The notes under the pieces are model-generated. The model saw only the letters and a program-made list of their open reading frames with translations. It did no database searches and was not told the origin of the DNA. Shown in pieces: positions 30,017 to 47,890 of a stretch of 64,000 nucleotides of DNA. Numbering within the stretch: the stretch's first letter is position 1; every line of letters starts with the position of its first letter. The DNA comes from a virus (lineage: Duplodnaviria > Caudoviricetes), in IMG/VR virus record IMGVR_UViG_3300049143_000045, positions 2,798 to 66,797 of that record; one strand, 5' to 3'. Made by a program: the position numbers and the translations under genes.

Positions 30017-30017
30017 C

Positions 30018-32049: not shown

Positions 32050-32499
32050 CTACTGCTCCTCGGAGTCGGCGATGGCGCGTACCCGGCGCGTGTACTCCTC
32101 CTTCAGCGCGACGGCACCAGGAGGGCTGCTGCGATCGAGCAGGCCGAAGCTGACAGGCTTGCCCTCCTGGCGCGGCTCGACCGGGCGGTCGAAATCCAGC
32201 CTGAAGAGGTAGGCGATGGCCTCGCTCCACCCTGCCAGCACAGGGAAGCGCTTGTGGAACTCCTCCGCCACCGCCTCGTCGCCGTAGTTGTAACCGAGGT
32301 GCATCTTGGCCAGCTCGCTCGTGGACATGTCCTGGATGCTCATGCTGCGCTCCTGGGGGATGAGGTTGATGGGGGCGATAGCGGCGACTCGGCGGCCGTG
32401 CCGGGTGATGTAGGTGACCTCTCCTGCGTACTCCGCACGGTTGACCAGGTCACCGAACTTGGCGCGTCCTTCGCGGAGGCCAATCTCGTTCTCGCTCAC
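32050..32499 (-). CDS. Phd/YefM-family antitoxin domain fused to a ~97-aa C-terminal domain
   Basis: IGLREGRAKFGDLVNRAEYAGEVTYITRHGRRVAAIAP. Confidence 0.75.
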   Translation of the reverse strand: MSENEIGLREGRAKFGDLVNRAEYAGEVTYITRHGRRVAAIAPINLIPQERSMSIQDMSTSELAKMHLGYNYGDEAVAEEFHKRFPVLAGWSEAIAYLFRLDFDRPVEPRQEGKPVSFGLLDRSSPPGAVALKEEYTRRVRAIADSEEQ

Positions 32500-32521
32500 A
32501 TCTAGAGGGTACGCAGTTGGC

Positions 32522-32535
32522 ATTGTGTACACAAT
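32522..32535. promoter_or_regulatory. Palindromic operator candidate for the Phd/YefM protein
   Basis: ATTGTGTACACAAT, perfect 14-bp palindrome with TGTACA core, 23 bp upstream of the start. Confidence 0.6.
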
Positions 32536-32625
32536 AGGTTTGGCCTTGTTTGTCGCGAGGACGCTGAGAGCCCTGCGCGCCCGCTCTCGCGAGGGGGTGG
32601 GCAGGGCTCTCTCGTGTGCTGGGGG

Positions 32626-33069
32626 TCAGCAGTTCTTGTAGTCGTACCTGGTGGAGTTGTACGAGCAGGAGTCGATCAGCTTGCCGCTGGCGTTCCGCAC
32701 GTACGCGGTGTCGCGGTCGTTGTTCCACACGTAGGCGCGGCGCCCCCAGTAGACGGTGGTGGTGCCGTCGCTGCCCTGCCCGGACCGGATGGTCAGCTTC
32801 TTCTTCGCGCCGAGGATGACGCCGCTGATCTCATAGGTGTAGCCGGTCTTGTCTTTGACCGTCCACCCCTCGAGGTCGATCGGGCGGGTGGTGGCGTTGT
32901 AGATGGTGACGTACTCGCCGTTGAGCGACGTGTTGGAGCGGCGGTCGCTGCCGGGCGAGTCGTAGAACACCTTCGTGATCTGTACGGCTGGGGCCGCGTG
33001 GGCGGGCAGCGTGGGGGCGAGTACAGCGGCCGCGGCGAGCGCAGCAGCGGCGAGCGGTAGAGGTCGCAC
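32626..33069 (-). CDS. Second secreted lamin-tail-domain protein
   Basis: Signal peptide ending AHA; NGEYVTIYN...IDLEGWTVKD...VWNNDRDTA. Confidence 0.85.
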   Translation of the reverse strand: MRPLPLAAAALAAAAVLAPTLPAHAAPAVQITKVFYDSPGSDRRSNTSLNGEYVTIYNATTRPIDLEGWTVKDKTGYTYEISGVILGAKKKLTIRSGQGSDGTTTVYWGRRAYVWNNDRDTAYVRNASGKLIDSCSYNSTRYDYKNC

Positions 33070-33278
33070 CGTCGAGTCCTCTGAGGGTGGGGGATAGGAA
33101 CGCTCCATGTGACGCCTGAATGTCACGGATGGTTGGCGGTGAACCACGTTCTGTTGGGGCTCCTCGTGGCACGCTCGGGATGCCGGGTCTTTGCCGTTCG
33201 CGGCGTTGAGGCGGGTTTCGCCCCGATCTGCGGCGGTCCTAGGATCGGCGCAGAACCGCGCACCACCTGGGGGAAACG

Positions 33279-33554
33279 ATGGCTGACCTCGACCTGCCGA
33301 CCGACGTGATCGAAGCTCAACGCGCCTACGACGCCGCCGACGCGCGGGTGCAGGAGCTGTCCGCGGCTCTGCCGTCGTCGGTGGCTGTGCTGGCGGGCGA
33401 GGCGACGTGGGACGAAAAGGCGGTGGCTGATCTGTTGGAGGCTCGAGCGGAGCGGCTGCGCATGCTTGAGGTGCTGCGGGACCTGCCGTGGTGGGAGACC
33501 GTCCCCAGCAAGCTGGACGCCGAACGGCAGCTGCGGGTCGCCGCCCGCGCCTGA
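33279..33554 (+). CDS. Hypothetical protein
   Basis: 91 aa, followed by terminator. Confidence 0.6.
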   Translation: MADLDLPTDVIEAQRAYDAADARVQELSAALPSSVAVLAGEATWDEKAVADLLEARAERLRMLEVLRDLPWWETVPSKLDAERQLRVAARA

Positions 33555-33563
33555 ACAACGTTA

Positions 33564-33598
33564 AGCGCCCTCGCCCCCCACGGGCGAGGGCGCTCTTT
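33564..33598. terminator. Intrinsic terminator
   Basis: AGCGCCCTCGCCC-CCCA-CGGGCGAGGGCGCT-CTTT. Confidence 0.75.
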
Positions 33599-33607
33599 CG
33601 CGTCCGG

Positions 33608-33859
33608 TCAGCCCTCCGGCCACGACTCCTTCGGTGCCACGAACGTCCCGCGGCCTTGCACGGTGACCGTCCACCCCTGCTCGCCCAGGAAAGCGACCGC
33701 CCGCCGTACCGTGCCGCGCGACACCCCATGCTCCTGCTGCAGGTGCGCCTCCGACGGCAGCACCTGTCTGGGTTGCAGGTCGCCGGCCTTGATGCGGTCG
33801 CGCAGGATCGCGGCGAGCTGCTCCCACAGCGGGGTCGGGTCGAGCTGGTCAACAGTCAC
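33608..33859 (-). CDS. Small GntR winged-helix-only regulator
   Basis: WEQLAAILRDRI...LPSEAHLQQEHGVSRGTVRRA...GRGTFV. Confidence 0.9.
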   Translation of the reverse strand: MTVDQLDPTPLWEQLAAILRDRIKAGDLQPRQVLPSEAHLQQEHGVSRGTVRRAVAFLGEQGWTVTVQGRGTFVAPKESWPEG

Positions 33860-33953
33860 GTACACAACGTTACGGACGACCATTCTGACCTGCTCAGACG
33901 GTCCGTATTGCACGGGCTGTACGAGTTGAACGAGTAGGACGTACTGTGCCGCC

Positions 33954-34211
33954 ATGTACTACCAGGACCCCGGCGACCCGGCCCTACTCAAAAACGCCCG
34001 CCTCAACGGCAGTGGCGACCACAAATGCGACGACTGCGGCCACACCGTCGTGCGCGCCTTCAGCATCCTGGGCGGATGGATGTGGCTGTCGCTCGCCGCG
34101 CAAGGCTCTGTGCCGGCCGCTCAATGCCCGGCCCGCGAGGGCGCGCTGGGCTTCGACTACGGCGCCCACCGGGTTCCGGCGAAGCTTGACGGCGAGGCGT
34201 CATCGGCCTGA
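33954..34211 (+). CDS. Hypothetical protein
   Basis: Divergent from GntR; CDDC motif. Confidence 0.5.
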   Translation: MYYQDPGDPALLKNARLNGSGDHKCDDCGHTVVRAFSILGGWMWLSLAAQGSVPAAQCPAREGALGFDYGAHRVPAKLDGEASSA

Positions 34212-34436
34212 CTGGCTCATCTGGCGTTTCGCTCTGACCGCCGCCAGCTCGACCACCTCAACCAGCTCGGCGAGGTCGACGTGCACGCTGACCTCGGCGG
34301 GGCTCCAGCAGTCGGCGACCCAGTAGAGGCGGCCGTTGACGCGGTGGGACACGCGGAGGCAGGGCCGTCCCTCGCGGATGATGTGCTCCACCTCGATCCC
34401 GTTCGGGGAGAGCCAGCGTGTCACGTCCGCGAGCAT
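34200..34436 (-). CDS. Hypothetical protein
   Basis: 78-aa ORF. Confidence 0.5.
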   Translation of the reverse strand: MLADVTRWLSPNGIEVEHIIREGRPCLRVSHRVNGRLYWVADCWSPAEVSVHVDLAELVEVVELAAVRAKRQMSQSGR

Positions 34437-34475
34437 ACGCCGAAACGGACATACGGGGCGTATCGTGGACAGCAG

Positions 34476-34509
34476 AACGCCCCGGCCAGGGGAAGCGGCC
34501 GGGGCGTTT
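34476..34509. terminator. Terminator ending the leftward small-gene operon
   Basis: AACGCCCCGGCC...GGCCGGGGCGTT. Confidence 0.7.
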
Positions 34510-34517
34510 GTCGTGCG

Positions 34518-34697
34518 CTACAGCTCGTCGGGGCTGACCTTCCGGTACGTCACCTTGACGCCCGCCTCCTTGGCGGCCTTCAGACGTCGGCGCAGGTCGG
34601 CTTCGCCGTACACGTAGATCGGACCGCCCATGATCTGCTCGGTGAGCGTCTCCTTGCCAGTCGGCTGGACGCTGAAGATGTACGTCGGCTTCGGCAT
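34518..34697 (-). CDS. Small hypothetical protein (59 aa, not in ORF track)
   Basis: GGGAG RBS; MPKPTYIFSVQPTG...KVSPDEL. Confidence 0.6.
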   Translation of the reverse strand: MPKPTYIFSVQPTGKETLTEQIMGGPIYVYGEADLRRRLKAAKEAGVKVTYRKVSPDEL

Positions 34698-34701
34698 CGG
34701 T

Positions 34702-34866
34702 TCACTCCCATGTGGTGAGGAGCTTCTTCAGCTCCTCGCGGGTGACATCGCCGTCAAGGTCTCGGGCGCGGCGGAGCAGCTTGTCGGACACGGCTGGCCA
34801 CGACTCGCGGTGGGCGGCCTGGCTCAGTTGCTGCCTTGCGATGTTGAGCGGCACCTTGGCTGCCAT
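34702..34866 (-). CDS. Small hypothetical protein (54 aa, not in ORF track)
   Basis: GAGGAG RBS; MAAKVPLNIARQQL...LLTTWE. Confidence 0.55.
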   Translation of the reverse strand: MAAKVPLNIARQQLSQAAHRESWPAVSDKLLRRARDLDGDVTREELKKLLTTWE

Positions 34867-34941
34867 CTCGCTCCTCGTTGGTGATCGGTGTGGCTGTAGG
34901 TTGTGCGGGTGGGTCCGGGGTCGATACCAGCGACCCCGGGC

Positions 34942-35100
34942 TCACCCGAGGATGCGGATCCGGTCCAGCCAGAGGGCGACCATGCCGCCGAAGCCGCCGA
35001 TGAGCACCACCAGCGGGTTGATCGGGGCTCCTTGCGCCAGGTAGCCGACTACGGCGAGCGTGGCGAAAGCGATGAACATGCTCGGGTAGGTGAGACGCAT
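34942..35100 (-). CDS. Small membrane peptide (52 aa, not in ORF track)
   Basis: AGGAGG RBS; MRLTYPSMFIAFATLAVVGYLAQGAPINPLVVLIGGFGGMVALWLDRIRILG. Confidence 0.6.
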   Translation of the reverse strand: MRLTYPSMFIAFATLAVVGYLAQGAPINPLVVLIGGFGGMVALWLDRIRILG

Positions 35101-35133
35101 CTGTCTGTCCTCCTAGAGATCGTTGCGAGCAGG

Positions 35134-35349
35134 TCAGCTGAGACCCTGTGCGCGCCGCGACGCGTCCTTCTTGAGTCGCTTCGCCTTCCTGGCGCCGACC
35201 GCCTGCTCCAATGCGGCGGCGGCCCTTTCTCGATCGACGCGGCTAACGCCGAACCCAGAGGCGACGTTCGCCAGGTTGTTGAGCTCGTTCGCGTTCGCCG
35301 ACTTGGCCCTGAGGGCGGCGAGCTGCTCGGGGGTCATCCTGCTGCGCAT
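35134..35349 (-). CDS. Small basic protein (71 aa)
   Basis: GAAGGAG RBS downstream of a leader repeat copy. Confidence 0.6.
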   Translation of the reverse strand: MRSRMTPEQLAALRAKSANANELNNLANVASGFGVSRVDRERAAAALEQAVGARKAKRLKKDASRRAQGLS

Positions 35350-35432
35350 GCTGTGCTCCTTCGGGGGATTGGTGGAGCTGCTGCTCCGGACGCCCGCCCG
35401 GCCGGGGAAGAACCGGGCGGGCATCCGCAACA

Positions 35433-35855
35433 TCAGCTGCCTGCCGCCGCGTCGACGGCGTCCCAATACGCGTCGTCGCAATACCAGACGACCGCCAGAC
35501 GCCCGCCGTGATCTTCGGCGACGTGCTGCTCAGCGGCGGACCGCGCGGCGTGATCGGTGACGTAGTTGCTGCCGGTCCACCGACAGCCGCCGCACCGCCA
35601 CGCGTAGTCGAAGCGGTGCGGGTTGGCCCACACGTCGATCCCGTGGCCCCACACGACGACCCCCAACGGGGTCGCGACGGTGGCGGCGAGCTGCTTGACG
35701 AGCACCTCCACGGCCTCCCGCTTGCCTTGTGTGGCGGCGTCGAAGTGGCTGCGGGCGCCTGGCAGGTCCTGGGCATCGAGCCGGTCGAGGATGGCATCCA
35801 CTGCCTGGTCGAGGGCGGCGGCGGCGACAGTCTTGATGAGCTCGCTCTTGTTCAT
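35433..35855 (-). CDS. Chimeric protein: HU-like first helix plus Zn-finger C-terminus
   Basis: Starts MNKSELIKTVA (HU: MNKSELIDTVA); WRCGGC...AEQHVAEDH. Confidence 0.7.
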   Translation of the reverse strand: MNKSELIKTVAAAALDQAVDAILDRLDAQDLPGARSHFDAATQGKREAVEVLVKQLAATVATPLGVVVWGHGIDVWANPHRFDYAWRCGGCRWTGSNYVTDHAARSAAEQHVAEDHGGRLAVVWYCDDAYWDAVDAAAGS

Positions 35856-35907
35856 GTGCTTCTCCTTTGATGGATGGGGTGGAGCAGGCGCTCCGGGCAC
35901 CCGCACG

Positions 35908-36120
35908 TCAGCGCTCCCAGTCCACGAGCGACGTATCGCAGTCGTCGCAGAGGTCCGCGCGGCCTCGTGTGCTGCCGGCCAGGAACGCGGCCACGATCGC
36001 AACGCCATACAGGGCGTCAGCGCCGAGGAGTATCCCGAGGGAGAAGGCGGTGAGGGCAAGCACGGTGACGGCCGTGCACTGCAGGGTGAAGCCGAGTCGA
36101 GCGGCGGCGGTCCGGATCAT
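35908..36120 (-). CDS. Small membrane protein with CxxC
   Basis: GAAAGGA RBS; two hydrophobic segments, CDDC. Confidence 0.6.
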   Translation of the reverse strand: MIRTAAARLGFTLQCTAVTVLALTAFSLGILLGADALYGVAIVAAFLAGSTRGRADLCDDCDTSLVDWER

Positions 36121-36180
36121 GATGGTTGTCCTTTCGAGGGGGTGGGGTGCCCGCCCAGTGTCGGGCGGGCACGAGGGACG

Positions 36181-36459
36181 TCAGGCGGCGCTGTTGACGG
36201 CCTGCTTGAACCCGGCGCCCGCCTTGAACGACGGGACATGCTTCGCCGCGACCTGGACGGTGCCGCCCTGCGGGTTGCGCCGCTCGCCGCCCTCACGGAA
36301 CCGACGCTCGAACACGCCGAACCCCTTAACCTCCATCCGATCGCCGGCGGCGACCGCGGCCTGAACCGTGTCGAGGGTGGCGTTGACGATCGCCGCCACG
36401 GCTGCCTTGGTCTGGCCGGTCTGCTTGGCGACGGTGTCGATCAGCTCGGACTTGTTCAT
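36181..36459 (-). CDS. hup: HU-family DNA-binding protein
   Basis: MNKSELIDTVA...GFGVFERR...RRNPQ...VPSFKAGAGFKQAV. Confidence 0.92.
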   Translation of the reverse strand: MNKSELIDTVAKQTGQTKAAVAAIVNATLDTVQAAVAAGDRMEVKGFGVFERRFREGGERRNPQGGTVQVAAKHVPSFKAGAGFKQAVNSAA

Positions 36460-36550
36460 GGGACTTCCTTTCGATGGATGGGTGGAGCGGACGCTCCGGG
36501 CCGCAGCCCCGGCAGGGGAAGTGTCGGGGCCGCACCCGCAACGGCCACCT

Positions 36551-36775
36551 TCAGCTGTGCGCCTTGGCGCAAGGGGCGCACATCGCGTCCCCGTGCCGCC
36601 TTGTTGTGGCCGGTCGGTCAGCGCACACCTCGCACGCCTTGGCGCACTTGGTGCAGTGGCCTGTGGAGGTGGTGGCGTAGTTGCCGCACCCACACAGCGG
36701 TTTGCCGTTGTAGGTGCCGGTACGGGCCATCTCGTGGGCTTCGGCCTCGGTGCGGGGGATCGGGCGTGTGGGCAT
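36551..36775 (-). CDS. Cys-rich Zn-finger peptide (74 aa)
   Basis: GGAGG RBS; CGCG, CTKC, CEVC, CAPC. Confidence 0.65.
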   Translation of the reverse strand: MPTRPIPRTEAEAHEMARTGTYNGKPLCGCGNYATTSTGHCTKCAKACEVCADRPATTRRHGDAMCAPCAKAHS

Positions 36776-36858
36776 TGGATGCCTCCTGGGTTGTGGTGGA
36801 GCGGACGCTCCGGGCCGCAGCCCCGGCTGCAACGTCGGGGCTGCGCCCGCAACAGCCG

Positions 36859-36996
36859 CTACTTCAGGAGCACACTGCCGGCCCCTTTGCACGCGGCGCA
36901 CTGCCTCTGGCCGAAGGAGCCGGGGGCGATGCCAGAGCCCTTGCATGTGCCGCACTTGACGACGTGGCCTGCACACTCCTGCTGCTTGTCACACAT
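36859..36996 (-). CDS. DnaJ-type Zn-finger peptide (45 aa)
   Basis: CGTCKGSG...CAACKGAG. Confidence 0.65.
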   Translation of the reverse strand: MCDKQQECAGHVVKCGTCKGSGIAPGSFGQRQCAACKGAGSVLLK

Positions 36997-37091
36997 CTGA
37001 ATCTCCCTGTACTGGATCGGATCAGGAGCTGGCTGCTCCGGGCACTCGCCCGACCGGGCCGGGCGGGCACCCGCAACCACCGCTCGATGTG

Positions 37092-37268
37092 TCACGGGAT
37101 TTCGCAGCAGGTGAGCGCGTGATTGTTGGCCACGTCCCGCTCCACTGGCCTGCTGGTGTGCCGGCAGCCGGAGCAGGTGTAGGGCCCCTCCTGCAGCACG
37201 CCTCTGTCGCGCGTGTGCGTCCAGGTGACGATTTCGCCGGCTCGCGTCCGGAACGTGCGCACCTTCAT
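37092..37268 (-). CDS. Zn-finger peptide resembling small AICE transfer-region proteins (58 aa)
   Basis: GAAGGAG RBS; YTCSGC...ANNHALTCCEIP. Confidence 0.6.
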   Translation of the reverse strand: MKVRTFRTRAGEIVTWTHTRDRGVLQEGPYTCSGCRHTSRPVERDVANNHALTCCEIP

Positions 37269-37383
37269 CGGGTCTCCTTCTGTCCTGATCGGTTGTGCAG
37301 GGTTTGTGGAGCGGACGCTCCGGGCGGCCCTCCCAGGAGGGTGGGAGAGCACCCGCAACAGCCGCTGCGAGGCGGGGTCGGAA

Positions 37384-37543
37384 GGTAGCCAGACCGCCTA
37401 ACCCGGTTAGTGATCTACCTCGCGGGCGAGAAGCAGCCAACCGGGCCGCGACCTGCGGAAAGTGACGAGCGTTAGCCAGTGAAGAGGGTTAGCCGGGAGC
37501 CCCTGAAACCCTCGAAAACCGGGTTCCATGAAGAGGTCAGCCA
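37384..37543. repeat. Imperfect 8-bp direct repeats, clt-like
   Basis: GGTAGCCA 37384, GTTAGCCA 37471, GTTAGCCG 37488, GTCAGCCA 37536, directly after the TraB stop. Confidence 0.4.
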
Positions 37544-37545
37544 CC

Positions 37546-39705
37546 TCACTCACCCGAGCCGCGCTGCGCCCGCACCTGCCGCAGATCGGCCGGGTCAAGC
37601 CGCAACACGTTGCCCGTGTTCGTGACCCGCACCCCGTGCTCGCGCGTCAAAATGTCGCGCAACTCGGTGCCGGTCAGCCGCTGGTACGGCAGCCAGCTCG
37701 GCGCGAGCTTCCGCAGCAGGCCAGGGATGTCCGCCAGCCGGATCCGCTCATGCCCCAGCACCTCGTCCAGGTCGTCCAGCAGATCCCGCGGCTTCTCAAC
37801 CTCGACGGCCCTTGAGCTGAGACCGGCCTGCTCGCGGAGCCTCATCGCACGCTCCACCACCGCGCCGACCTCGCCCTCCGACACGTAGAAGCAGCGCAGC
37901 AGGGCGGGCTTAGCCTCGAAGCTCTTGCCCATGCACGTGCCGACGTCGCCCATGCCTTCGTCGGTCTTCGGCTCCAGGCCGACGGCGGAGATGCCCGCCT
38001 TGTAGGAGCCGGTGCCGAGCACGGCATCATTGGACTGCTGGTCGCCGATCGCGAAGCACGCCTTGTTGGAGATGACCGTCATCAGCTTGCGCGGCAGAGA
38101 CGCTGATGACGGCTCCGGCGTAGCGAAAATCATCGTGTAGCCGTACTTGCGGGCCGCGTTGAGCAGCCTCACCGCGAGGCTGATGGCCTCCTCGCCGTAC
38201 TCCTCGTGCATGAACAGCGCCTGGCACTCGTCCACCACGATGATCCGTGGGCGCAGACGCGCGTCCTTCTCGGCGACGGCATGGTTGACGGCGCGCACGC
38301 CGTGCTCCTGCAGCGCCTTGCCGCGCACGTCGAGGTCGGCGTACTCCTTGCGCAGCCTGTTGAGGCAGGCTTCTACGATCTCGTCGCCGGTGCCGGTCAG
38401 CAGGGTCCGCAGCCGCGGCCTGATCGGTTCGTAGTCGGCGTTGACGGCCATCACGAACACGTCCGCTTCGACCAGCGGGTCGAGGATCGCGCCGAGCAGC
38501 AGGTCGATGATGAGGGTGGACTTGCCGGACCCCATCATCCCGGCGAGCGCGTAGTTCGCCTCGGACAGGCGGCCGATGATGGTCTTGCCGCGGATGTTGA
38601 CGCCCACCGGAACGCCCACGAAGTAGTCGGTGGTGCCCTCGTGGAGGAGGGGCCACGGGTCTACTGGTCCGGTGAGTGCGCCCTGGTCGGCGACCCACAG
38701 GTCCATGACGCCGGGCTTTGGTTCGGTCGGCCACACCTCGATCGGGAAGCGAACGAGGTTGTGGGCGAGCAGCTTCTTCTTCTGGTTGATCATTTCGACG
38801 GTGACGCCGGCGGGGAGTTCCAGCTGGGTGCGGTAGCCCTTGCCGTCGCGGTGGGTGGGCATCGGAAAGCGGGGACGCCACCCGTCCTTGAACGCCTTGT
38901 TGAGGGTGCTGATGTTGAGGTTGCGCAGGGCGTTGAGGATGGCACCCTCGTCGGGGATGACGTCGCGTCCTTCGGGGTCGTCGTCCGCGGACCCGACCAG
39001 CCATGTCGGTGTGCCAGCGCGGCGCCCCTCCTTCCACGCGGCGACCAGCACGGCGATCGGCGCCCCGACCGTCAGCGCAGGCCACAGCCACGCCAGGACG
39101 GTCAGCACGGCCTTGATGAGCCCGCCGACCCACAGCCACACCGCGCCGAATGAGCCCACCCCCGTGGCCCATACAGCGATGCTGAGCAGCAGCATGAGCA
39201 CGAGGAAACCGACGATGCTGATCGCGGCCACCTTGAGGATCCCGAGCACCTTCACCGGCAAGTCCATCAGCCGCGAGTGCCGCTGGTCAGCTGCCCGCTG
39301 CTTGAGCTCGATCCACTTGACCAGCGCCTCCTGGTCGCCCATTGCTTCGGCGGCGCGGATCTGCCGCCGGTAGACGCCGAGGGTGAGGCCGTCCCAGGCG
39401 CGCACCCACCAGGAGTGCCAGCCCTGCGCGATGGTGACGGTGGTGGCGACGGCACCCTGCGCGACCGCCGCAGTGCCCGGCGAGGGGCGGACCGCGATCT
39501 GACGCCCGGCGATCCGGACAGGAAGCCGCAGGCCAGGCGCGTCGTCGACGACTTCGCCCTCGTAAATCTTCTCCTCAAGCTCGCGGCTGGTGCGCGGCTC
39601 CAGTTCGGTGCTCATCTCGCCGTCTTCCGGGCGGGGCAGGGGCAGGTCTGGGGCGTCGGCGCTGTCGCGGACGAGGTACAGGGCGCGTTCCTGGATTTCG
39701 CTCAC
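37546..39705 (-). CDS. FtsK/SpoIIIE-family DNA translocase, TraB/TraSA-like
   Basis: N-terminal TM segments, Walker A AGMMGSGKST, Walker B IIVVDECQ, C-terminal wHTH-like domain; GTG 39705. Confidence 0.9.
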   Translation of the reverse strand: MSEIQERALYLVRDSADAPDLPLPRPEDGEMSTELEPRTSRELEEKIYEGEVVDDAPGLRLPVRIAGRQIAVRPSPGTAAVAQGAVATTVTIAQGWHSWWVRAWDGLTLGVYRRQIRAAEAMGDQEALVKWIELKQRAADQRHSRLMDLPVKVLGILKVAAISIVGFLVLMLLLSIAVWATGVGSFGAVWLWVGGLIKAVLTVLAWLWPALTVGAPIAVLVAAWKEGRRAGTPTWLVGSADDDPEGRDVIPDEGAILNALRNLNISTLNKAFKDGWRPRFPMPTHRDGKGYRTQLELPAGVTVEMINQKKKLLAHNLVRFPIEVWPTEPKPGVMDLWVADQGALTGPVDPWPLLHEGTTDYFVGVPVGVNIRGKTIIGRLSEANYALAGMMGSGKSTLIIDLLLGAILDPLVEADVFVMAVNADYEPIRPRLRTLLTGTGDEIVEACLNRLRKEYADLDVRGKALQEHGVRAVNHAVAEKDARLRPRIIVVDECQALFMHEEYGEEAISLAVRLLNAARKYGYTMIFATPEPSSASLPRKLMTVISNKACFAIGDQQSNDAVLGTGSYKAGISAVGLEPKTDEGMGDVGTCMGKSFEAKPALLRCFYVSEGEVGAVVERAMRLREQAGLSSRAVEVEKPRDLLDDLDEVLGHERIRLADIPGLLRKLAPSWLPYQRLTGTELRDILTREHGVRVTNTGNVLRLDPADLRQVRAQRGSGE

Positions 39706-40022
39706 TGGAGCACCGCCCTCGCGCTGGTGGTGCGGTAGACCCGCAGGTGCCGGCCGTCCATGGCAAGCCAGGAGGCGAGGCGGACGGCGATCCAGGCGAC
39801 GATGACGCTGGCGAGGTAGAGGGCGGTGCGGGCCGCGTACCAGGCCACCACGAACGGCGGGTCGACGAGCACCTGGAGCAGCCACCATGCCCGCTGCCGC
39901 CAGGTGGAGCGGCGGACGGCGGCGTAGAGCTGGCTGGCGGTGCGGTCATCCGCCTGCGGCTTGCAGATCGACGCGAGCGTGAGCAGGGCGAACACGAGCA
40001 CGAGCGTCAGGGCGGAGTTCAT
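39702..40022 (-). CDS. Membrane protein, Spd-like
   Basis: Hydrophobic ORF coupled to TraB. Confidence 0.55.
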   Translation of the reverse strand: MNSALTLVLVFALLTLASICKPQADDRTASQLYAAVRRSTWRQRAWWLLQVLVDPPFVVAWYAARTALYLASVIVAWIAVRLASWLAMDGRHLRVYRTTSARAVLQ

Positions 40023-40261
40023 CGGAGCTCACCTCTCATACGCGCGCGTTCGATGCGGCGCGCCGTGCGGTAGCCGAAGAGGACGGACACGGTCAGGAGT
40101 GACGCCACGAGGGCGACGGCGGCGGGCAGCACCAACGCGGTCACGAACGTGAGCGCGACGACGGCGGCGAAGTACGCCAGCATTTCGAGAAGGTCAAGGA
40201 TGATGTAGGCGAGGACCCTTGCCGCGACCCTCATAGCCGCGAACACCACGGCGCTGCTCAC
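40019..40261 (-). CDS. Membrane protein, Spd-like
   Basis: Hydrophobic 80-aa coupled ORF. Confidence 0.55.
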   Translation of the reverse strand: MSSAVVFAAMRVAARVLAYIILDLLEMLAYFAAVVALTFVTALVLPAAVALVASLLTVSVLFGYRTARRIERARMRGELR

Positions 40262-41622
40262 GCTTCAGCCCTCCTTTTCGACTCGAGGGCGCGCCTGGTG
40301 CGGCCGTCCATCTCAGCCAGCCACTGCCGCGCCTTCTTCGCCCCCCACTGGGGGCTGCACCTGCCGGCCGCGGCCAACTCGGCGCCGTTGGGGATACGCC
40401 GCTCTACCTCGACGATCTCCTGCCAGCGACGCCACATCGCGTCGGTGGCGCGTGTTTCATTCGCGGTTTCATCACCGGTTTCGGCGGCATCCTGCGGAGG
40501 CGTGTCGCGCAACCTGTCGATCAACTCGTCGATGTCGCCAGGCGAAACCTCGACCTCAACACCGCGGACCGTTTCACCCGGCGTTTCGATCGAAGGCAGT
40601 TCGCGACCTTCCAGGCGGGCGATGTAGGCGGCCATCGACTGGATCGCAGCTTGCGTTTCGGGGTCGCGCTGCGCCTGGATGGCTGTCGTCCACTCCCGCA
40701 TCGCGTCGGCCAGCTTCACGGCTTCGTGGTGCTTGGCGGCGCCGGTGACGGCGGGGTGGTCGATGTGCGCCCACGGGGCAACCTCTGGCAGGTCGAGGAG
40801 ACTGGCCCCGCCGTACAGGGCGGTGATCTGGTCGAGCAGCGCCCACTGCATGCGCTCGTCGCGCGGCAGCCCGGTGTGCTCGACCGCCTTGTCCAGCGCC
40901 CGATCCAGCTTGGCCATCGCGGCGCGCAGCTTGCGGTCGGAGACGCCCTGATCGCGCAGCGCCCGCGCCTTCTTGGCGGCCAGGGCCACGCGGGTCAGCC
41001 TGCGGTGCGCGTCGACCTCGGAGGCGCTGCGGTCCTTAGCTTCGGCCAGACCGAGCCAGACCAGCGCACGCTCAGGGGTGATCCGCCAGTGGATGCCGGA
41101 CAGGCCAGTGACGCGGCGCCGCTCCAACCGCATGCCGCGCTCCCACAACCACGCCGCAACGAGCGGGGCGGCAAGCCTGAACACGACCTCGCCGAAGTTG
41201 CGCGCGTCGATCGCGGAAAGAGCGGCGGTGAGGCAGGCGAGCGCCCACACGGCGACCCCGTCGACGCCAGCCGAGTAGTTGTCGCGCATCGACTTGCGGG
41301 CGCGCAACGCGGAGATGACGATGGCGCCTTCGATGAACGCGAAGCCGAGGACCCGCATGGGGCCGTCGACGCCGAGAACGTCGGCGAAGAACTTCCACAT
41401 GCCTTGGGCGGAGACGCTGGTGGCGATGCCCGCCATGACCCAGGTCAGCCAGTCTTCGGGCGCGTGCCTCTTGACGGTGGTGCGGGGCTTGCGTGCTCGC
41501 CGTGCTGCGCGGGCTGCGTTGACCGCGGCTCGGGCGAGGATCCAGGTGGCGGTGAGGGCGCAGACTCCGCCGACGATCCACACCACCCAGGTGGGTGGAA
41601 GGTAGGCATCCATATCGTTCAC
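40258..41622 (-). CDS. DUF2637/SpdB2-like multi-TM spreading protein with C-terminal HTH
   Basis: About 4-5 TM helices, basic coiled coil, C-terminal IPNGAELAAAGRCSPQWG HTH-like segment; in TraB operon. Confidence 0.65.
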   Translation of the reverse strand: MNDMDAYLPPTWVVWIVGGVCALTATWILARAAVNAARAARRARKPRTTVKRHAPEDWLTWVMAGIATSVSAQGMWKFFADVLGVDGPMRVLGFAFIEGAIVISALRARKSMRDNYSAGVDGVAVWALACLTAALSAIDARNFGEVVFRLAAPLVAAWLWERGMRLERRRVTGLSGIHWRITPERALVWLGLAEAKDRSASEVDAHRRLTRVALAAKKARALRDQGVSDRKLRAAMAKLDRALDKAVEHTGLPRDERMQWALLDQITALYGGASLLDLPEVAPWAHIDHPAVTGAAKHHEAVKLADAMREWTTAIQAQRDPETQAAIQSMAAYIARLEGRELPSIETPGETVRGVEVEVSPGDIDELIDRLRDTPPQDAAETGDETANETRATDAMWRRWQEIVEVERRIPNGAELAAAGRCSPQWGAKKARQWLAEMDGRTRRALESKRRAEA

Positions 41623-41762
41623 TGCTCCGTTTCCGGGTGCTGCAGGTGCGGTGGTTTGGTGGCCCGGCGCGGGCTGCTGGGCTGGGTGTGGTGCCCGCGC
41701 CGGGCGGCTGGTTGGGTGGCCCCGCCCCCGTCCCTCCAGATCCCAGGGCGGGACCACCCGGT

Positions 41763-42011
41763 CTATGAGGCGCGGCGGGCGGCTTCTGCCAGATCGGCCA
41801 TGTCGTACGGAGGCCGGCGCATGCGGTGCACGGTCGGGCGCGCCCGATCAGCGGCTGCTTCGATCTGGGTGTGGATGGCGAGCAGCGCGTGGCCGATGCC
41901 GAGGAGGGAGGCGCGGACGGCGACCATGTCGCCTTCGTGGGTGGAGTGGTAGCTGCTGGCCAGGTGCAGGTAGTCGGCGGCCTGCTCGGCGTGGGTGTCG
42001 TGCTGGCACAT
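41763..42011 (-). CDS. Hypothetical protein
   Basis: 82-aa ORF in the leftward operon. Confidence 0.5.
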   Translation of the reverse strand: MCQHDTHAEQAADYLHLASSYHSTHEGDMVAVRASLLGIGHALLAIHTQIEAAADRARPTVHRMRRPPYDMADLAEAARRAS

Positions 42012-42027
42012 GTCGGATCCCTCAGGG

Positions 42028-42291
42028 TTAGGCGGTTCGGTTACGACGCCAGTCGGCGAGCTGGACGACGGTGGCGGGCTGCGACGGGGTGGCGATGGGC
42101 CGCTGGTATCCGGCCGACTTCAGGAGCTCGATGTCCTCGCGCCTGCTGTCGATCACCTGCTGTCGCAAGACGACCATCTGCCTCTTCACGTCGACGATCT
42201 GCTGCTTGAGCTCCTCGAACAGCTCCATGTACGCGCGGTCACAGCTCATGTGGCGCTCACCCTGGGCGGCAGCGGCCGTAGACTCGTTCAC
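42028..42291 (-). CDS. Hypothetical coiled-coil protein
   Basis: AGGAGG RBS; ends VVQLADWRRNRTA. Confidence 0.55.
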   Translation of the reverse strand: MNESTAAAAQGERHMSCDRAYMELFEELKQQIVDVKRQMVVLRQQVIDSRREDIELLKSAGYQRPIATPSQPATVVQLADWRRNRTA

Positions 42292-42378
42292 CGGATCTCT
42301 CCTCCTGTAGGCAGGTGGTGGGGATCAAGGGCGGGTCTTGGTGTTCCAGCACCGGACTCGCCCGTTTGCGTCTGCGGG

Positions 42379-42672
42379 CTACGAGGCCGACAGCTGAGAC
42401 TCGGCAAGCCACTGGGCGGCGAACTCGTCGACGTCAACGGGGCGACCGGAGTTGATCTCGGCGGCCAGGTCGTCGACGAACCGCGTCAGGATTTTGATGG
42501 AGCGGCCGAACTTGCGGCCGGGAAATCGGTTGGCGTGGTAGCGGCGGTAGACGCTGAGCGGGCTTACGCCGAGGAGGTCGGCGGTGTCCTTGACGGGCAA
42601 GTACGGCGGGCGCTTCGCGCTCCCGTTTATCTCCTGGCTCACGTCATCCGTAGGGCGCTGGGTGCTCTGCAT
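42379..42672 (-). CDS. Xis-like HTH DNA-binding protein
   Basis: LPVKDTADLLGVSPLSVYRR...GRKFGRSIKI. Confidence 0.75.
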   Translation of the reverse strand: MQSTQRPTDDVSQEINGSAKRPPYLPVKDTADLLGVSPLSVYRRYHANRFPGRKFGRSIKILTRFVDDLAAEINSGRPVDVDEFAAQWLAESQLSAS

Positions 42673-42730
42673 GCTCTGGACAATATAAGGACTACGTAGT
42701 GGCTGCAAGGCTGAGTAAGCGGATCTAACC

Positions 42731-42762
42731 AAAAAGAAAGCCCCCGGCGAGGCCGAGGGCTT
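42731..42762 (-). terminator. Intrinsic terminator after GntR
   Basis: Minus strand AAGCCCTCGGC...CCGGGGGCTTTCTTTTT. Confidence 0.7.
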
Positions 42763-42779
42763 GGACGTAGCGGAGGACT

Positions 42780-43493
42780 TCAGGAGACAGGTTGGCGGTA
42801 TCGCACCTGGTAGAGGTGCGCACCCTTGATCATGATGGACGCCTCCACGGGCTCGCCGGCTGGCCCATAGATCACGCGGAACTGGCGGATCACCGGGACG
42901 CCAGGCAGATCCAGCAACTCGACCTCCTCCGTCGTCGGCATGCGCGCCGAGATCGTGTCCACCATGTCCGTCTCGGCATGCCCCAGCTCGGCGAGGACCC
43001 GCGGCGCGCCACCCTTGATCTTCGCCTTGGCTTCCAGCGCAGTACCCTCGGCGATCTCGACGGGATAGAACGACCAGTCCAGCTCGACCGGCCGGTCGTT
43101 GTGCCGCAGCAGTCGCTTGCGCAGGAGCGCCACGCTGGCCTCCGGCAAGCCGAGCGCATCCCGGACCTCGCCGGGAGGCTGCTCCCGACCCACCTGCAGA
43201 AGCTCGTAGCTGTAGCCACCCGGAGACGGCGCAAAGTAGGAGGAGACGTCCACGATGAACGGCTGCCGGTTCTCCACGAAGACGCCCTTACCTCGGCGAC
43301 TCGACAGGAACCCCTCGCTCTTCAGCGCGTCGACCGCCCGCTGGATGGTGGGATTGGACGCATCGAATTCCTCGACCAGCTGCGAGTTGCTCGGTAGCTG
43401 GTCGCCTGGCTTGAGGTCGCCCGCCATGATCCTGGCCCTCAACTCGGCGGCGACCCGATCGGAAAGAAGCCGCGTGTCCTCGCGCTTCGCCAT
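42780..43493 (-). CDS. GntR-family regulator with UTRA domain (KorSA/TraR-like)
   Basis: LKPGDQLPS...SNPTIQRAVDALKSEG...GKGVFV plus UTRA domain. Confidence 0.9.
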   Translation of the reverse strand: MAKREDTRLLSDRVAAELRARIMAGDLKPGDQLPSNSQLVEEFDASNPTIQRAVDALKSEGFLSSRRGKGVFVENRQPFIVDVSSYFAPSPGGYSYELLQVGREQPPGEVRDALGLPEASVALLRKRLLRHNDRPVELDWSFYPVEIAEGTALEAKAKIKGGAPRVLAELGHAETDMVDTISARMPTTEEVELLDLPGVPVIRQFRVIYGPAGEPVEASIMIKGAHLYQVRYRQPVS

Positions 43494-43497
43494 GCGG

Positions 43498-44034
43498 TTA
43501 CCCGACCTTCAACTGGTAGCTGAGGGCTCGCCCCTCGGGCAGCATCGCCATGTCCGTCACCTCGAAGGGGACGCCGTCAGCGTCGAGCGTGACCCGCAGC
43601 AGCGTGAGTAGGGGAGCGCCCTCCTCCACGCCAAGTAGTTCCGCCTCCGCTCCGGTTGCCCGCCGAGCGCTGACGTCCTCGTGAACGTCATGCACCACAT
43701 GGCCGAGTTCGGCGAGCAGCGTCACCGCGCCGCCCTTGATCTTCTCGGGGCGGCTCAAGGCTGTGCCGTCGGCAATCGACGGGGGGTACCAGGAATCGGC
43801 CAACTCGACCGGCCGGTCGTCCAAGAGGATCAGGCGTCGGCGCACCACAGCCTCTATGTCAGGGGCGATCTGTAGGCCGGCCGCTACATGTGCCGGGGGT
43901 CGAGCATGACCTACCTCGAGCAGGCGCTGCCCTCCTGAGTGCCCTGCGGCTGCGGCTTCCTCGGACCACGCGTCACCGCGGCCCTCACGCCGGGGCGTTA
44001 CGTAAGGCGTTGAGCTGGCTGTCCACACAGGCAC
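43498..44034 (-). CDS. UTRA-domain protein lacking the HTH
   Basis: VVRRRLILLDDRPVELADSWYP...KIKGGA; clear paralog of the UTRA half of the next gene. Confidence 0.8.
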   Translation of the reverse strand: MPVWTASSTPYVTPRREGRGDAWSEEAAAAGHSGGQRLLEVGHARPPAHVAAGLQIAPDIEAVVRRRLILLDDRPVELADSWYPPSIADGTALSRPEKIKGGAVTLLAELGHVVHDVHEDVSARRATGAEAELLGVEEGAPLLTLLRVTLDADGVPFEVTDMAMLPEGRALSYQLKVG

Positions 44035-44400
44035 TCCTCTCGATCGAGACGTGCCTCAACCTTATAAGAGAACCGTTAAAGCAACATGGTGTGGATCAGC
44101 CGCCCACAGCATGTGGATGATGCGGGCGGCCTCCCACCGTCCGGTCATCCGTCCGCGAACTGGAGGGTGGAAGGCCGCCCCTGGCCGGCTGTCGCAGCGA
44201 CTGCGCTCGCTGGACGGCCGGGGCTTATCTCATGCTGGTGTCAAGCCGCTCACGGAAGCATGGCTTGATCGACTGTCCGGCATGTGTGAAAAATGAGGGT
44301 GCGGCAGCAAATAGCGCACCCGTCGCAAGGGAACACCATCGCTGCCGCACCCGGTCTTACACCTCCACCCTCGTGGAGGTAGCTTGATCGCAGCTGTGCC

Positions 44401-44439
44401 ATGCCCGGTCATGCCCGGTCACGATATGGCATGCCCGGT
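44401..44439 (+). repeat. Helically phased direct repeats, operator candidate
   Basis: ATGCCCGGT at 44401, 44411, 44431, upstream of small GntR. Confidence 0.55.
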
Positions 44440-44482
44440 GCGAGACGTTTAGGCACTGGCATGCGCCACTACGGTCTCTCCC

Positions 44483-44752
44483 ATGATCAAATGGGAGAGA
44501 GGGGAAGCCGTCTGGGATGGGGACAGAGCTGTGTGGAAGCAGGTCGCCGACGAGCTCCGCAACCGCATCAAAGACGGCGTCTACCGCCCCAGGAACGCCA
44601 TCCCCAGCCTCACCTCGCTGGTCGAAGAGTTCGGCATCGCGCGCAACACGGTCCGCAAAGTCGTCGAGCACCTGGAGCGTGAAGGCTACGTCCGCCGCGA
44701 GATGGGCGTCGGCACGTTCGTCACCCCCAAGGATGAGTGGCCGAAGCAGTAG
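44483..44752 (+). CDS. Small GntR winged-helix-only regulator
   Basis: WKQVADELRNRI...IPSLTSLVEEFGIARNTVRK...GVGTFV. Confidence 0.9.
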   Translation: MIKWERGEAVWDGDRAVWKQVADELRNRIKDGVYRPRNAIPSLTSLVEEFGIARNTVRKVVEHLEREGYVRREMGVGTFVTPKDEWPKQ

Positions 44753-44970: not shown

Positions 44971-45106
44971 GATGGGGTGACTCCTGTTATAGGGGAGGAT
45001 CTAGGCCATACTCTGAGTGCAGCAAGCAAAATGCAATAGGCGAAACGAAAAAGGCGAATAGTCCTGTATGTACCGCAAAGGGGCATCTCGTCACGAGGAG
45101 GCTGCA

Positions 45107-45955
45107 ATGACGTCATCAAGCCCGACGGTCAAGCGTCGCCGACTGTCAACAGAGCTCCGCAAACTCCGCGTCGCCGCAGGCCTCGAAGTCAAAGACGCCG
45201 CCCGCCGCCTCGAATGGGACCCCACCAAGATCCACCGCATGGAGCGCAACAAATGGCTGCGCCCCGACCCACGCGACGTCCGCGACCTACTCGACCTGTA
45301 CGGCCTCGCCGACGAACCCACCCGCGAAGCGATGCTCACCCTCGCCCGCGAATCCCGAGAACGCGGCTGGTGGGCCGACTACCAAGACGTCTTCCGCGGC
45401 TCACTGCCCGACTTCGAAGCCAGTGCCACCCTCATCCGCACCTACGAGGCCATGTTCGTGCCCGGCCTCCTGCAGACCGCGGACTACACGCGCGCCATCA
45501 TGCGCGCCGGCTGCTGCCTTGACGACGCCACCATCGAGCGCCGCGTCGAGGCGCGCCAGGGGCGGCAGGCGATCCTCGACCGCGATGCCCCGCCGCAACT
45601 GTGGGCGGTCATCGATGAGGCAGCCCTGCAGAAGATGGTGGGCGGCGCGGATGTGATGCGCGCGCAACTCGAGCACATTCTCAAACTCGCTGAGCGGCCG
45701 GACGTTGCCATTCAGGTGCTGCCGAACTCGGCGGGCGCGCACGCTGCTATGTGTGGCGGGTTCGTTGTACTTGACTTCGCTTCCGAACTCGACCCTAGCC
45801 TCGTAGTGATCGAGACTGCGACCGACAGCCTCTATCTTGAGCAGGCGGAGGAACTTCGTCGTTACACGGTGATTTACAGCCATGTGCAGGCACTCGCTCT
45901 TTCGGCTGCCGAGTCGGCGAAGTTTATGGAGTCGATGATCCGACAACTGCAGTAG
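45107..45955 (+). CDS. XRE HTH plus DUF5753 protein (WhiJ/Scr1-like)
   Basis: RRRLSTELRKLR...GWW..Y...VPGLLQTADY...LWAVIDEAAL. Confidence 0.92.
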   Translation: MTSSSPTVKRRRLSTELRKLRVAAGLEVKDAARRLEWDPTKIHRMERNKWLRPDPRDVRDLLDLYGLADEPTREAMLTLARESRERGWWADYQDVFRGSLPDFEASATLIRTYEAMFVPGLLQTADYTRAIMRAGCCLDDATIERRVEARQGRQAILDRDAPPQLWAVIDEAALQKMVGGADVMRAQLEHILKLAERPDVAIQVLPNSAGAHAAMCGGFVVLDFASELDPSLVVIETATDSLYLEQAEELRRYTVIYSHVQALALSAAESAKFMESMIRQLQ

Positions 45956-45965
45956 AGAGGCGAGG

Positions 45966-46160
45966 ATGGATCACAGCACTCTCGTCTGGCGGAAGAGTAA
46001 GCATTCCGGCCAGGGGGACAACTGCGTGGAGGTCGCGAAGCTGCCTGACGGCGGCCGTGGCATCCGCGACTCGAAGGATCCGTCAGGTCCGCAGCTGTTC
46101 TTCACTCCGGGGGAGTGGGCCGCCTTCCGTAGCGGCATGGCGGACGGCGAGTTCGACTGA
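45966..46160 (+). CDS. DUF397 protein (BldB/Scr2-like)
   Basis: WRKSKHSG...CVEVA...IRDSKDP...EWAAF. Confidence 0.93.
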   Translation: MDHSTLVWRKSKHSGQGDNCVEVAKLPDGGRGIRDSKDPSGPQLFFTPGEWAAFRSGMADGEFD

Positions 46161-46285: not shown

Positions 46286-46530
46286 TGGGAGGAATTTGGG
46301 AGGAGCGGGTCCCTCCAGAACCCCCTAAGACGCACTACGACTATCCCTCTGACCAGGCATAATCCTTGATTTACCTGGCCGTCAAGGTGGCCTAACGTTG
46401 TTTGCAAGCAGGATGTCAGGAGTTCGAATCTCCTAGGCTCCACCCATTCCTAGCCTCCTGACCAGGCTAAACAGCTTGCCCGAACTGCATAGGAATGATC
46501 TTCGCCCCCCCAATGGGAGGAATTTGGGAG
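46286..46530. repeat. Integrase arm-type repeats flanking the att core
   Basis: TGGGAGGAATTTGGGAG exact at 46286-46302 and 46514-46530; CTGACCAGGC also on both sides. Confidence 0.7.
46401..46444 (+). other. att core: 3' half of tRNA-Ala(TGC), not an intact tRNA
   Basis: TTTGCAAGCAGGATGTCAGGAGTTCGAATCTCCTAGGCTCCACC gives anticodon loop, T-arm and acceptor 3' strand; no D-arm upstream. Confidence 0.85.
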
Positions 46531-47873: not shown

Positions 47874-47890
47874 GTGCGTCTCGCTCCTCC

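Follow-up and report, generated by a model that had tools for sequence, protein, structure and literature searches.

A TraB-like transfer module in a tRNA-integrating temperate siphovirus of Streptosporangiaceae

Does a tailed phage of mycelial actinomycetes possess a plasmid-type transfer system of its own, and if so, what would it transfer? The question is raised by a 64,000-nucleotide (nt) stretch of viral DNA (the window), which comprises bases 2798-66797 of a 66,797-bp IMG/VR virus record (IMGVR_UViG_3300049143_000045; class 'linear', CheckV completeness 87%) and in which an operon resembling the transfer regions of Streptomyces plasmids adjoins the integration site of a phage. The original prediction for this locus held that the excised phage circle may spread by conjugation as well as by virions; every in silico test that it named came out favorable, and its interpretation is supported to the extent that sequence comparison can do so. 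The window element is a temperate siphovirus of Streptosporangiaceae (mycelial soil actinomycetes of the Streptosporangium/Nonomuraea group), with genes for terminase, portal, protease, capsid, major tail, tape measure, minor tails and endolysin, an integrase with a phage attachment site (attP), and a repressor. Its gene content, family relations and attachment site are established, as is the conservation of its layout and repeats. On balance we judge it likely, though far from certain, that this phage carries a native TraR-Tra-clt cassette in an accessory slot and moves its own double-stranded DNA (dsDNA) between hyphae or compartments.

The transfer module

The module is an operon of translationally coupled genes, read leftward, that separates lysis genes from attP in a complete-looking virion gene set, as predicted. 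All of the genes originally named are present on the minus strand at or near their predicted positions; a paralog of the repressor that consists of the UTRA domain only is an addition. The main features are as follows (helix-turn-helix, HTH; transmembrane, TM; amino acid, aa; open reading frame, ORF; locus that acts in cis in transfer, clt).

43498-44034, minus strand: UTRA-only paralog of the repressor, no HTH (Pfam UTRA 5.1e-26)
42780-43493, minus strand: TraR/KorA-like GntR-family repressor (winged HTH plus UTRA), first operon gene (Pfam GntR 1.6e-18, UTRA 1e-14)
42379-42732, minus strand: small HTH_17 (MerR/Xis-like) protein, predicted to bind DNA (Pfam HTH_17 2.2e-4, 21.9 bits against a cutoff of 27)
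41763-42291, minus strand: two small soluble proteins of 87 and 82 aa, from ORFs supported by third-codon-position GC content (GC3)
40258-41613, minus strand: 451-aa protein with multiple predicted TM segments (ORF 40258-41757; 451 aa is the gene caller's product)
40019-40261, minus strand: 80-aa protein with two predicted TM helices, overlapping each neighbor by 4 nt
39702-40022, minus strand: 106-aa predicted membrane protein at the place of pSVH1 orf108, its stop overlapping the tra start
37546-39705, minus strand: Tra, a TraB-like FtsK-fold predicted dsDNA translocase of 719 aa
37384-37545, minus strand: candidate clt-like noncoding locus, approximately 160 nt directly 3' of the tra stop

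Tra has a predicted N-terminal membrane region (hydrophobic segments at 159-221, within long helices at 76-229 in the model), a motor at approximately 250-630, and a C-terminal winged-helix-like domain at 642-716. Its Walker A (GMMGSGKS, 389-396) and Walker B (VIDECQ, 490-495) motifs, originally described as intact, are invariant in 28 homologs. The P-loop and FtsK matches in Pfam are all sub-threshold, and PHROG 1358 ('FtsK/SpoIIIE-like') matches at 1.2e-19. An AlphaFold (AF2) model has a predicted local distance difference test score (pLDDT) of 77 overall and 85-95 over residues 250-630; Foldseek returns the FtsK motor 2IUS as the best match (E 2.8e-16, TM-score 0.66 on target), followed by TcpA, a conjugative coupling protein, and then by EccC. 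The C-terminal ~90 residues are modeled as a domain (pLDDT 85) with helix-helix-helix-strand-strand-helix topology.

A comparison with host FtsK, proposed as a check on the prediction, places Tra with the TraB type. All 28 matches of Tra in PLSDB are Tra/FtsK genes of actinomycete plasmids, including pSVH1 (TraB) and pSG5, the best being the integrative plasmid pCM32 (43% identity, 1e-79). By blastp, Tra scores 305 bits against pCM32, 179 against pPaSha2 and 83 against pSVH1 TraB; of the two chromosomal FtsK paralogs of Nonomuraea typhae, one scores 42 bits and the other gives no match. A maximum-likelihood tree unites Tra and pCM32 Tra in a clade with 100/100 support. In the same tree one chromosomal FtsK paralog joins pSVH1 TraB at 80/74; long branches make the deeper nodes untrustworthy, and the affiliation of Tra rests on the well-supported shallow clade and the pairwise scores. 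Tra is also 49-59% identical to Tra in Saccharothrix and Actinosynnema loci that have Prim-Pol, Rep and integrase genes after tra and are classical AICEs (integrative and conjugative elements of actinomycetes), and its closest homologs are in Streptosporangium sp. NPDC005286 (77%, on a 45.7-kb contig) and S. sandarakinum (71%, on a 66-kb contig). A tblastn search of 50,697 GenBank phage records with Tra gave no match at 1e-5, and pSVH1 TraB found in those phages only weak FtsK-like genes, mostly in Cluster J mycobacteriophages and Bacillus phages. These relations of the sequence point to conjugation, and by analogy with the plasmid systems Tra may move dsDNA between hyphae.

The noncoding stretch after tra contains four to five direct 8-mers in one orientation (GGCTGACC, GGCTAACC, GGCTAACG, CACTAACC and GGCTACCT) flanking a central TTTCCGCAGGTC. 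Minus-strand sites of the form CTAAC followed by C or G number eight in the window, and three of them fall within 85 nt at this locus. A noncoding stretch with four to five repeats also follows tra in 10 related loci; in an alignment of the window with nine of these the repeats are in register, with no variation in the central motif or in one TAAC. This conservation is stronger evidence for a clt-like locus than the enrichment of the repeats. The repeat word occurs in three types (CTAACC, CTAACT and TTAACCC), and these match the division of the Tra C-terminal domain into three groups by sequence, an agreement that TraB-clt specificity predicts. The 8-mer array is thus proposed as a putative docking site of Tra. 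A second candidate for clt, the palindrome GGAGCG-N2-CGCTCC, was rejected; it accompanies small genes, as in L031, where it precedes HU, and not tra.

The GntR-UTRA regulator, correctly predicted to head the operon, aligns over its full length with the pSVH1 GntR protein (TraR; 29% identity, 1e-24), so that Tra is paired with a predicted GntR-type TraR/KorA repressor, in a putative kil-kor arrangement. The UTRA-only protein aligns to TraR residues 99-252, and DNA repeats (D2, D4 and D8) connect its gene with 42977-43099. The gene said to encode a Xis-like HTH protein (42379-42732) is present; its HTH_17 match falls below the cutoff, and it matches PHROG 66 'excisionase and transcriptional regulator' at 3e-4. 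The 87- and 82-aa proteins have no Pfam, PHROG or NCBIfam match.

In the ORF table, 4-nt start/stop overlaps at 40258-40261, 40019-40022 and 39702-39705 join the genes for the 451-aa, 80-aa and 106-aa proteins and tra. The last two of these membrane proteins are the small ones that the prediction had described, and homologs of the 106-aa protein lie directly upstream of tra in four related loci (L022, L033, L036 and L038). The gene for the large multi-TM protein likewise lies upstream of tra in the coupled operon and is kept with tra elsewhere (L022, L032, L036 and L039). Homologs of this 451-aa protein (60-71% identity in Nonomuraea and Streptosporangium) are common in these and allied genera. 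Some carry the UniRef name DUF2637, and the nearest named ESM Atlas cluster of the protein is also DUF2637 (score 0.95, from language-model neighbors); we treat both as leads.

Integration site and ownership of the module

The integration functions lie upstream of the operon.

46401-46447, plus strand: attP core, matching tRNA-Ala(TGC) from its anticodon loop through its 3' acceptor end; the integrase stop lies 20 nt before it
46467-48419, minus strand: tyrosine integrase, longest ORF (PHROG 1 integrase 3e-39; Pfam Phage_int_M/Phage_integrase weak); conserved part, residues ~181-623

The attP core (44-47 bp) occurs at 100% identity in many genomes; of the 151 Streptosporangiaceae genomes sampled, 115 contain a match, located in tRNA-Ala(TGC) genes, and the host family is named on this basis. 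The tRNA link of the original prediction takes this form: no tRNA gene was found in the window, and the link is the attP core. No terminal repeat was found in the window either. Because the integrase and att site lie amid phage genes, the record represents the excised (phage/circular) configuration, opened within the early region. In many Streptosporangiaceae genomes the tRNA-Ala att core is present three to four times within 4-16 kb (e.g., G038:C3:166444-170142 and G060:C20:1524-17838); they represent tRNA-Ala gene clusters or else elements integrated in tandem at this site.

Machinery that would mark the module as a separate element was sought in the whole 66.8-kb record. The integrase is the sole recombinase (the only PF00589 match), with no resolvase-type recombinase (PF00239). 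There is no Prim-Pol (PF09250) and no homolog of pSVH1 Rep, pCM32 Prim-Pol or the pCM32 532-aa Rep; the RepAM profile PF12307 was not searched. ParA/ParB (PF02195, PF13614) are absent from the record, which is incomplete. No direct repeat of at least 12 bp flanks the module, where exact matches reach 11 bp at most (mean for shuffled sequence, 12), and the attP core has no second copy. The statements that the module has no RepSA/RepAM-like initiator, no second integrase and no second att fragment are thereby upheld, and att repeats of its own, named in advance as evidence against the prediction, are lacking. GC content is 63-72% across the window, with no composition break at the module. Integrase and Tra lie on one att-bounded element, here as in a relative from N. 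typhae. Since it has no Rep, the element is not an AICE; nor is it a plasmid prophage of the pZL12 type, as it lacks ParAB and uses a tRNA as its integration site.

The module in other phages and prophages

A survey of related phages, also suggested at the outset, finds the module at the same position in approximately 11 viral contigs, in a sister phage and in a prophage of N. typhae. The N. typhae p1410 prophage (G003:C8:49253-146861; L023/L024) is bounded by a perfect pair of 47-bp repeats 97.6 kb apart with no third copy between them, so that its module, too, lies inside a single att pair; attL is the 3' end of tRNA-Val(CAC), and the other copy is attR. The element contains an integrase by attL, early genes, tail genes homologous to those of the window, and a Tra module by attR. 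Its gene order is that expected on integration of the window's circle. The 451-aa protein is 60% identical between the two elements and Tra 35%; the tRNA-Val att core has no counterpart in the window. Approximately 14 kb separates the tail genes from the Tra module in N. typhae, and several GntR paralogs lie between the module and attR.

Relatives of Tra were found in 32 IMG/VR records. In most of the 11 closest viral relatives (Tra 56-66% identity), homologs of the endolysin, lamin-tail-domain or tail genes are convergent downstream of tra, and in several the repressor and 451-aa genes are upstream of it. The sister phage (G160), a 53.9-kb metagenomic contig that is 94% complete, has a capsid 91.5%, a major tail protein 89% and a portal 75% identical to those of the window. 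Its module is at the same place and more diverged (Tra 58%, 451-aa protein 63%); conserved virion genes beside a diverged module are a sign of cassette exchange. HK97-type capsids are encoded in 16 of 33 Tra-bearing viral records, and three more have the window's terminase type. One complete genome of 62.2 kb (G184), with 127-bp terminal repeats and an HK97 capsid, carries a distant Tra. In a further relative (G158:C1:28175-29667) the terminase homolog is divided between two frames that overlap, and one TGA is in frame; possible causes are a sequencing error, a frameshift, or the presence of an intein or intron.

The Pseudonocardia alni 'plasmid' pPaSha2 (CP052773.1; L014/L015), a 41.9-kb circle, is an entire phage genome of the HK97 type, in which DUF2637 and FtsK genes lie between those for integrase and holin. 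Both pPaSha2 and PhiNon1 (NZ_LT559120.1; L084) were deposited as plasmids and are complete phage genomes in which a DUF2637 gene is followed by an FtsK-like gene; that of PhiNon1 is annotated only as hypothetical. A Tra match in the N. gerenzanensis chromosome was considered as PhiNon1 and rejected, being an AICE-like locus near tRNA-Ile.

Comparison with characterized systems

The pSVH1 transfer region of Streptomyces venezuelae has the order traR / spdB3-spd79-spdB2-orf108-traB / spd genes (Thoma et al. 2015, PMC4447253). The window shares with it a GntR-type repressor, coupled small genes with a large multi-TM protein, a protein of ~100 aa just before tra, an FtsK-like pump of ~720-770 aa, and then 8-bp repeats and small genes; the motor is 27% identical to that of TraB, and the repressor is related to TraR as given above. 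In contrast to pSVH1, in which the repressor gene is divergent, the window repressor is co-directional with the operon, and the large membrane protein has no detectable SpdB2 homology. The repeat word of the window is yTAACC-like, and we take it to differ from that of pSVH1. The carriers also differ: here a 60-70-kb integrative phage, there a 12.6-kb rolling-circle plasmid with Rep.

Outside phages, the closest Tra proteins (43-59% identity) are those of AICEs of the pCM32 type, i.e., pCM32 of Saccharopolyspora endophytica and the Saccharothrix and Actinosynnema loci. Like the window, these have a tyrosine integrase and, upstream of tra, a gene for a large hypothetical protein; unlike the window, they carry Prim-Pol and Rep beside tra and have no virion genes. 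AICEs are defined by the combination Int + Tra + Rep (Ghinet et al. 2011, PMC3218068), a definition that the window element fails in that no Rep was found.

Precedents are known, namely pZL12, pFP4 and PhiNon1, and the window element differs from both AICEs and prophages of the pZL12 type. Beside pFP4, pZL12 is the other known Streptomyces plasmid-phage; it is ~90 kb in size and reportedly transfers. Like pZL12/phiZL12 (Zhong et al. 2010) and pFP4 (Chen et al. 2012), with which it was compared by description rather than by sequence, the window element unites virion genes and transfer functions on one replicon. Streptomyces plasmid-phages such as pFP4 are described in one account as conjugating as episomes and also forming infective particles (Thoma et al. 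2014, PMC4170104), and another ascribes ParA/ParB to pZL12 and its relative pSLE1 (PMC4487206). Unlike these extrachromosomal plasmid prophages, the window element integrates at a tRNA gene, has no ParA/ParB that we could find and belongs to another host family.

PhiNon1 of Nonomuraea gerenzanensis ATCC 39727 is a 59-kb 'plasmid-phage' for which polymerase chain reaction shows both a circle (copy number 17) and an integrated form, at the 3' end of tRNA (Val-CAC); the paper never mentions FtsK, TraB or transfer genes, and transfer was not tested (D'Argenio et al. 2016, PMC5431353). Its record encodes, between integrase and tail end, a DUF2637 protein (24.3 bits) and, in the same slot, a protein of 654 aa with weak similarity to FtsK (16 bits in Pfam; 66% probability by hhalign with the Tra profile). 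PhiNon1 thus resembles the window element as a tRNA-integrating phage of the same host family, and it weakens the original remark that no characterized tRNA-integrating version was known. It differs in its head/tail module, which is of the HK97 type, and in its FtsK-like protein, which tblastn with the window Tra missed.

Isolated actinophages (Cluster J mycobacteriophages and the Streptomyces phages Geonosis, Jaresh and AndoPrime) also encode ATPases of the FtsK/SpoIIIE superfamily; unlike the window Tra, these are weakly related to TraB (at most 59 bits against pSVH1 TraB). In the literature examined, FtsK-like genes of isolated Streptomyces phages receive passing mention, and such actinophage ATPases are treated as replication or development factors and not as a tra-spd-clt module. 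The AICE reviews examined contain no description of Tra modules in tailed phages, and no literature was found on pCM32 or on prophages joining an AICE-type FtsK with capsid genes.

Possible function

From these comparisons we infer DNA binding, pumping, transfer and the timing of expression of the module. The repressor would be relieved while the prophage is excised or replicating as a circle. Tra, as a hexameric FtsK-fold pump, would dock on the 8-bp repeats after tra and, where hyphae touch, pump the phage DNA across the envelope in double-stranded, unprocessed form; with the membrane proteins, as counterparts of Spd, DNA would also cross septal cross-walls. Recipient mycelium could thus be lysogenized or infected without virions, the virion route being kept. 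The Rep and second integrase of an AICE would not be needed because the phage supplies replication (a DnaB-type helicase and a RecE/RecT-like pair) and integration.

Several points weigh against this account. Transfer of this element is inferred. A phage genome of 60-70 kb is much larger than the known TraB substrates among small plasmids and AICEs. The top Foldseek rows for the Tra C-terminal domain are winged-helix proteins (forkhead, ArsR, MarR and TubR) at a weak E of at least 0.1. A looser 6-mer reaches at most four matches per 170 nt in the window, and simulations reach up to five, so that the enrichment of repeats is modest; common descent could account for the agreement between repeat types and protein groups. 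Because the record is 87% complete, genes could be absent from it. The 451-aa protein has no Pfam match: its best six-frame match to DUF2637 (PF10935) is 12.1 bits (E 0.0055) against a cutoff of 22.8, none of 26 family members matches DUF2637, and hhalign gives 2% probability against both pSVH1 SpdB2 and the pPaSha2 DUF2637 protein. Of the original description as a DUF2637/SpdB2-like multi-TM protein, then, the topology and position hold and the family label is weak. Homology to SpdB2/DUF2637 is not demonstrable and is not taken as established; given the failed profile and hhalign comparisons, we call the protein an SpdB2 analog by position and topology.

A less probable account, though one that deserves attention, is that the module serves spread inside one mycelium only, passing phage DNA through septal cross-walls with no mating between mycelia. 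In pSVH1, TraB and the Spd proteins assemble into a complex that serves intramycelial spreading (PMC4447253), the module is rich in small membrane proteins, and crossing septa would benefit phages of compartmented hyphae by enlarging the infected or lysogenized territory. In the characterized systems, however, TraB alone suffices for intermycelial transfer (PMC4447253), and sequence cannot separate spreading from transfer.

We rate it as somewhat more doubtful still that the module is cargo with another use, such as mobilization of the host chromosome from the prophage, a kil or exclusion function, or help in lysis through a pore-forming membrane protein. The module does occupy a moron slot beside attP on the strand opposite the late genes; SpdB2 of pSVH1 forms pores and gives lysozyme access to the wall (PMC4447253), and AICE Tra has been reported to mobilize chromosomal DNA (PMC11571958). 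Yet the full set of repressor, pump and membrane proteins is kept across diverged phages, and the conserved cis repeat array beside tra makes the phage DNA itself the most direct substrate. That the module is a separate AICE or remnant adjoining the phage through tandem integration, insertion or chimeric assembly is very improbable. In its favor, Tra is equally close to true AICE Tra and to phage-borne Tra, and the contig behind the window is incomplete and of the class 'linear'. Against it, no integrase, Rep or att repeats of the module's own were found, the same junctions recur in assemblies made independently from isolates and from metagenomes, the single att pair of N. typhae has no internal copy, and the ORFs are intact and coupled with invariant motifs.

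If the phage does use the module as plasmids do, a tailed phage would reach new hyphae without particles, receptors or lysis. The boundary between phages and conjugative elements would be blurred, and models of host range, superinfection and prophage spread in antibiotic-producing mycelial bacteria would need to change. With clt in cis within an integrated prophage, Hfr-like mobilization of the host chromosome might follow. A wider proposal, which we advance tentatively and hold with less confidence than the reading for this phage, is that chromosomally integrating 'conjugative prophages' are a widespread and overlooked class in Streptosporangiaceae, Pseudonocardiaceae and Streptomyces, combining virions with TraB-driven dsDNA transfer and swapping tra-clt cassettes with AICEs. 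The element itself indicates module exchange between AICE Tra cassettes and phages: its Tra is 57-59% identical to Tra of true AICEs, and the sister phage combines a capsid of ~91% identity with a Tra of only 58%. The finding draws its appeal from the range of phage lineages involved, from clean att evidence and from hosts in which it can be tested; test systems exist in PhiNon1, with circular and integrated forms demonstrated, and in N. typhae p1410, a cleanly bounded prophage.

Small-gene array and remaining phage genes

The run of tiny genes that had been noted at the end of the operon comprises approximately 11 genes after the clt-like locus, down to a short GntR-type gene.

35134-37268, minus strand: seven small genes (37092-37268, 36859-36996, 36551-36775, 36181-36459 encoding HU, 35908-36120, 35433-35855 and 35134-35349)
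33608-35100 region, minus strand: operon tail with four tiny genes (34942-35100 with two TM segments, 34702-34866, 34518-34697 and 34200-34436)
33608-33955, minus strand: short GntR-type winged-HTH protein, last gene of the operon tail

The HU gene is supported by Pfam Bac_DNA_binding (1.3e-23, 83.5 bits), and a homolog of 34200-34436 is kept in L036, L039 and L040. Most of the seven small genes are preceded by a conserved leader with the palindrome GGAGCG-N2-CGCTCC, which occurs five times in 35134-37341 (four exact copies and one with one mismatch) against 1.06 expected. The copies sit 20-40 nt before the small genes; a sixth match, at 46611, is outside the array. The palindrome also precedes small genes, including HU, in relatives L031, L033, L039 and L040. 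Because it accompanies small genes and not tra, it looks like an operator or promoter element, probably one common to the array. The 140-aa gene at 35433-35855, two genes past HU, has near-identical first 11 residues and leader, followed by an unrelated Cys-rich protein.

Two further sets of regulatory genes lie between the operon and attP.

44483-44752, plus strand: short GntR-type winged-HTH protein, 89 aa, upstream of the operon (Pfam GntR 2.8e-18)
45068-46160, plus strand: HTH_31/DUF5753 regulator and DUF397 small protein, between the module and attP (DUF5753 4.2e-60; DUF397 1.3e-22)

The HTH_31/DUF5753 and DUF397 pair also adjoins distant Tra genes in Lentzea genomes (L019 and L021) and viral contigs (L053 and G184), which suggests a connection with the transfer module.

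The phage gene map, obtained by GC3-guided gene calling and Pfam/PHROG family scans, gives the context of the module.

4816-30824, plus strand: virion and lysis block
4816-6303, plus strand: terminase
6319-8013, plus strand: portal (PHROG 10963, 3.9e-131)
8845-9921, plus strand: MuF-like protein
9899-12505, plus strand: 868-aa protein containing the head-maturation protease
12902-14089, plus strand: capsid
16858-17340, plus strand: major tail protein
18814-22368, plus strand: tape measure
24982-28626, plus strand: minor tail proteins
29532-30824, plus strand: amidase (endolysin)
32050-43493, minus strand: leftward block
49176-49757: repressor-like HTH protein
right of 49176-49757, plus strand: early genes, encoding a YqaJ-type exonuclease, RecT and a DnaB-type helicase

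Neither the module nor the head genes had a megablast match among GenBank phages. For the tail protein, the only relatives found are distant Streptomyces siphophages (23-26% identity), and plasmids yielded none. Two small lamin-tail-domain proteins lie between the endolysin and the module, at 30989-31528 (plus strand) and ~32626-33100 (minus strand; Pfam LTD 4e-16 and 5e-24, respectively); both have a hydrophobic N-terminal segment, and homologs hold the same place in L032, L038, L039 and L040. A 160-aa protein at 32050-32532 (minus strand) has a weak Phd/YefM antitoxin N-terminus (4e-5, under the cutoff). A 140-bp direct repeat, 85% identical, connects the start of the contig (record bases 823-961, upstream of the window) with the early region (window 51480-51618).

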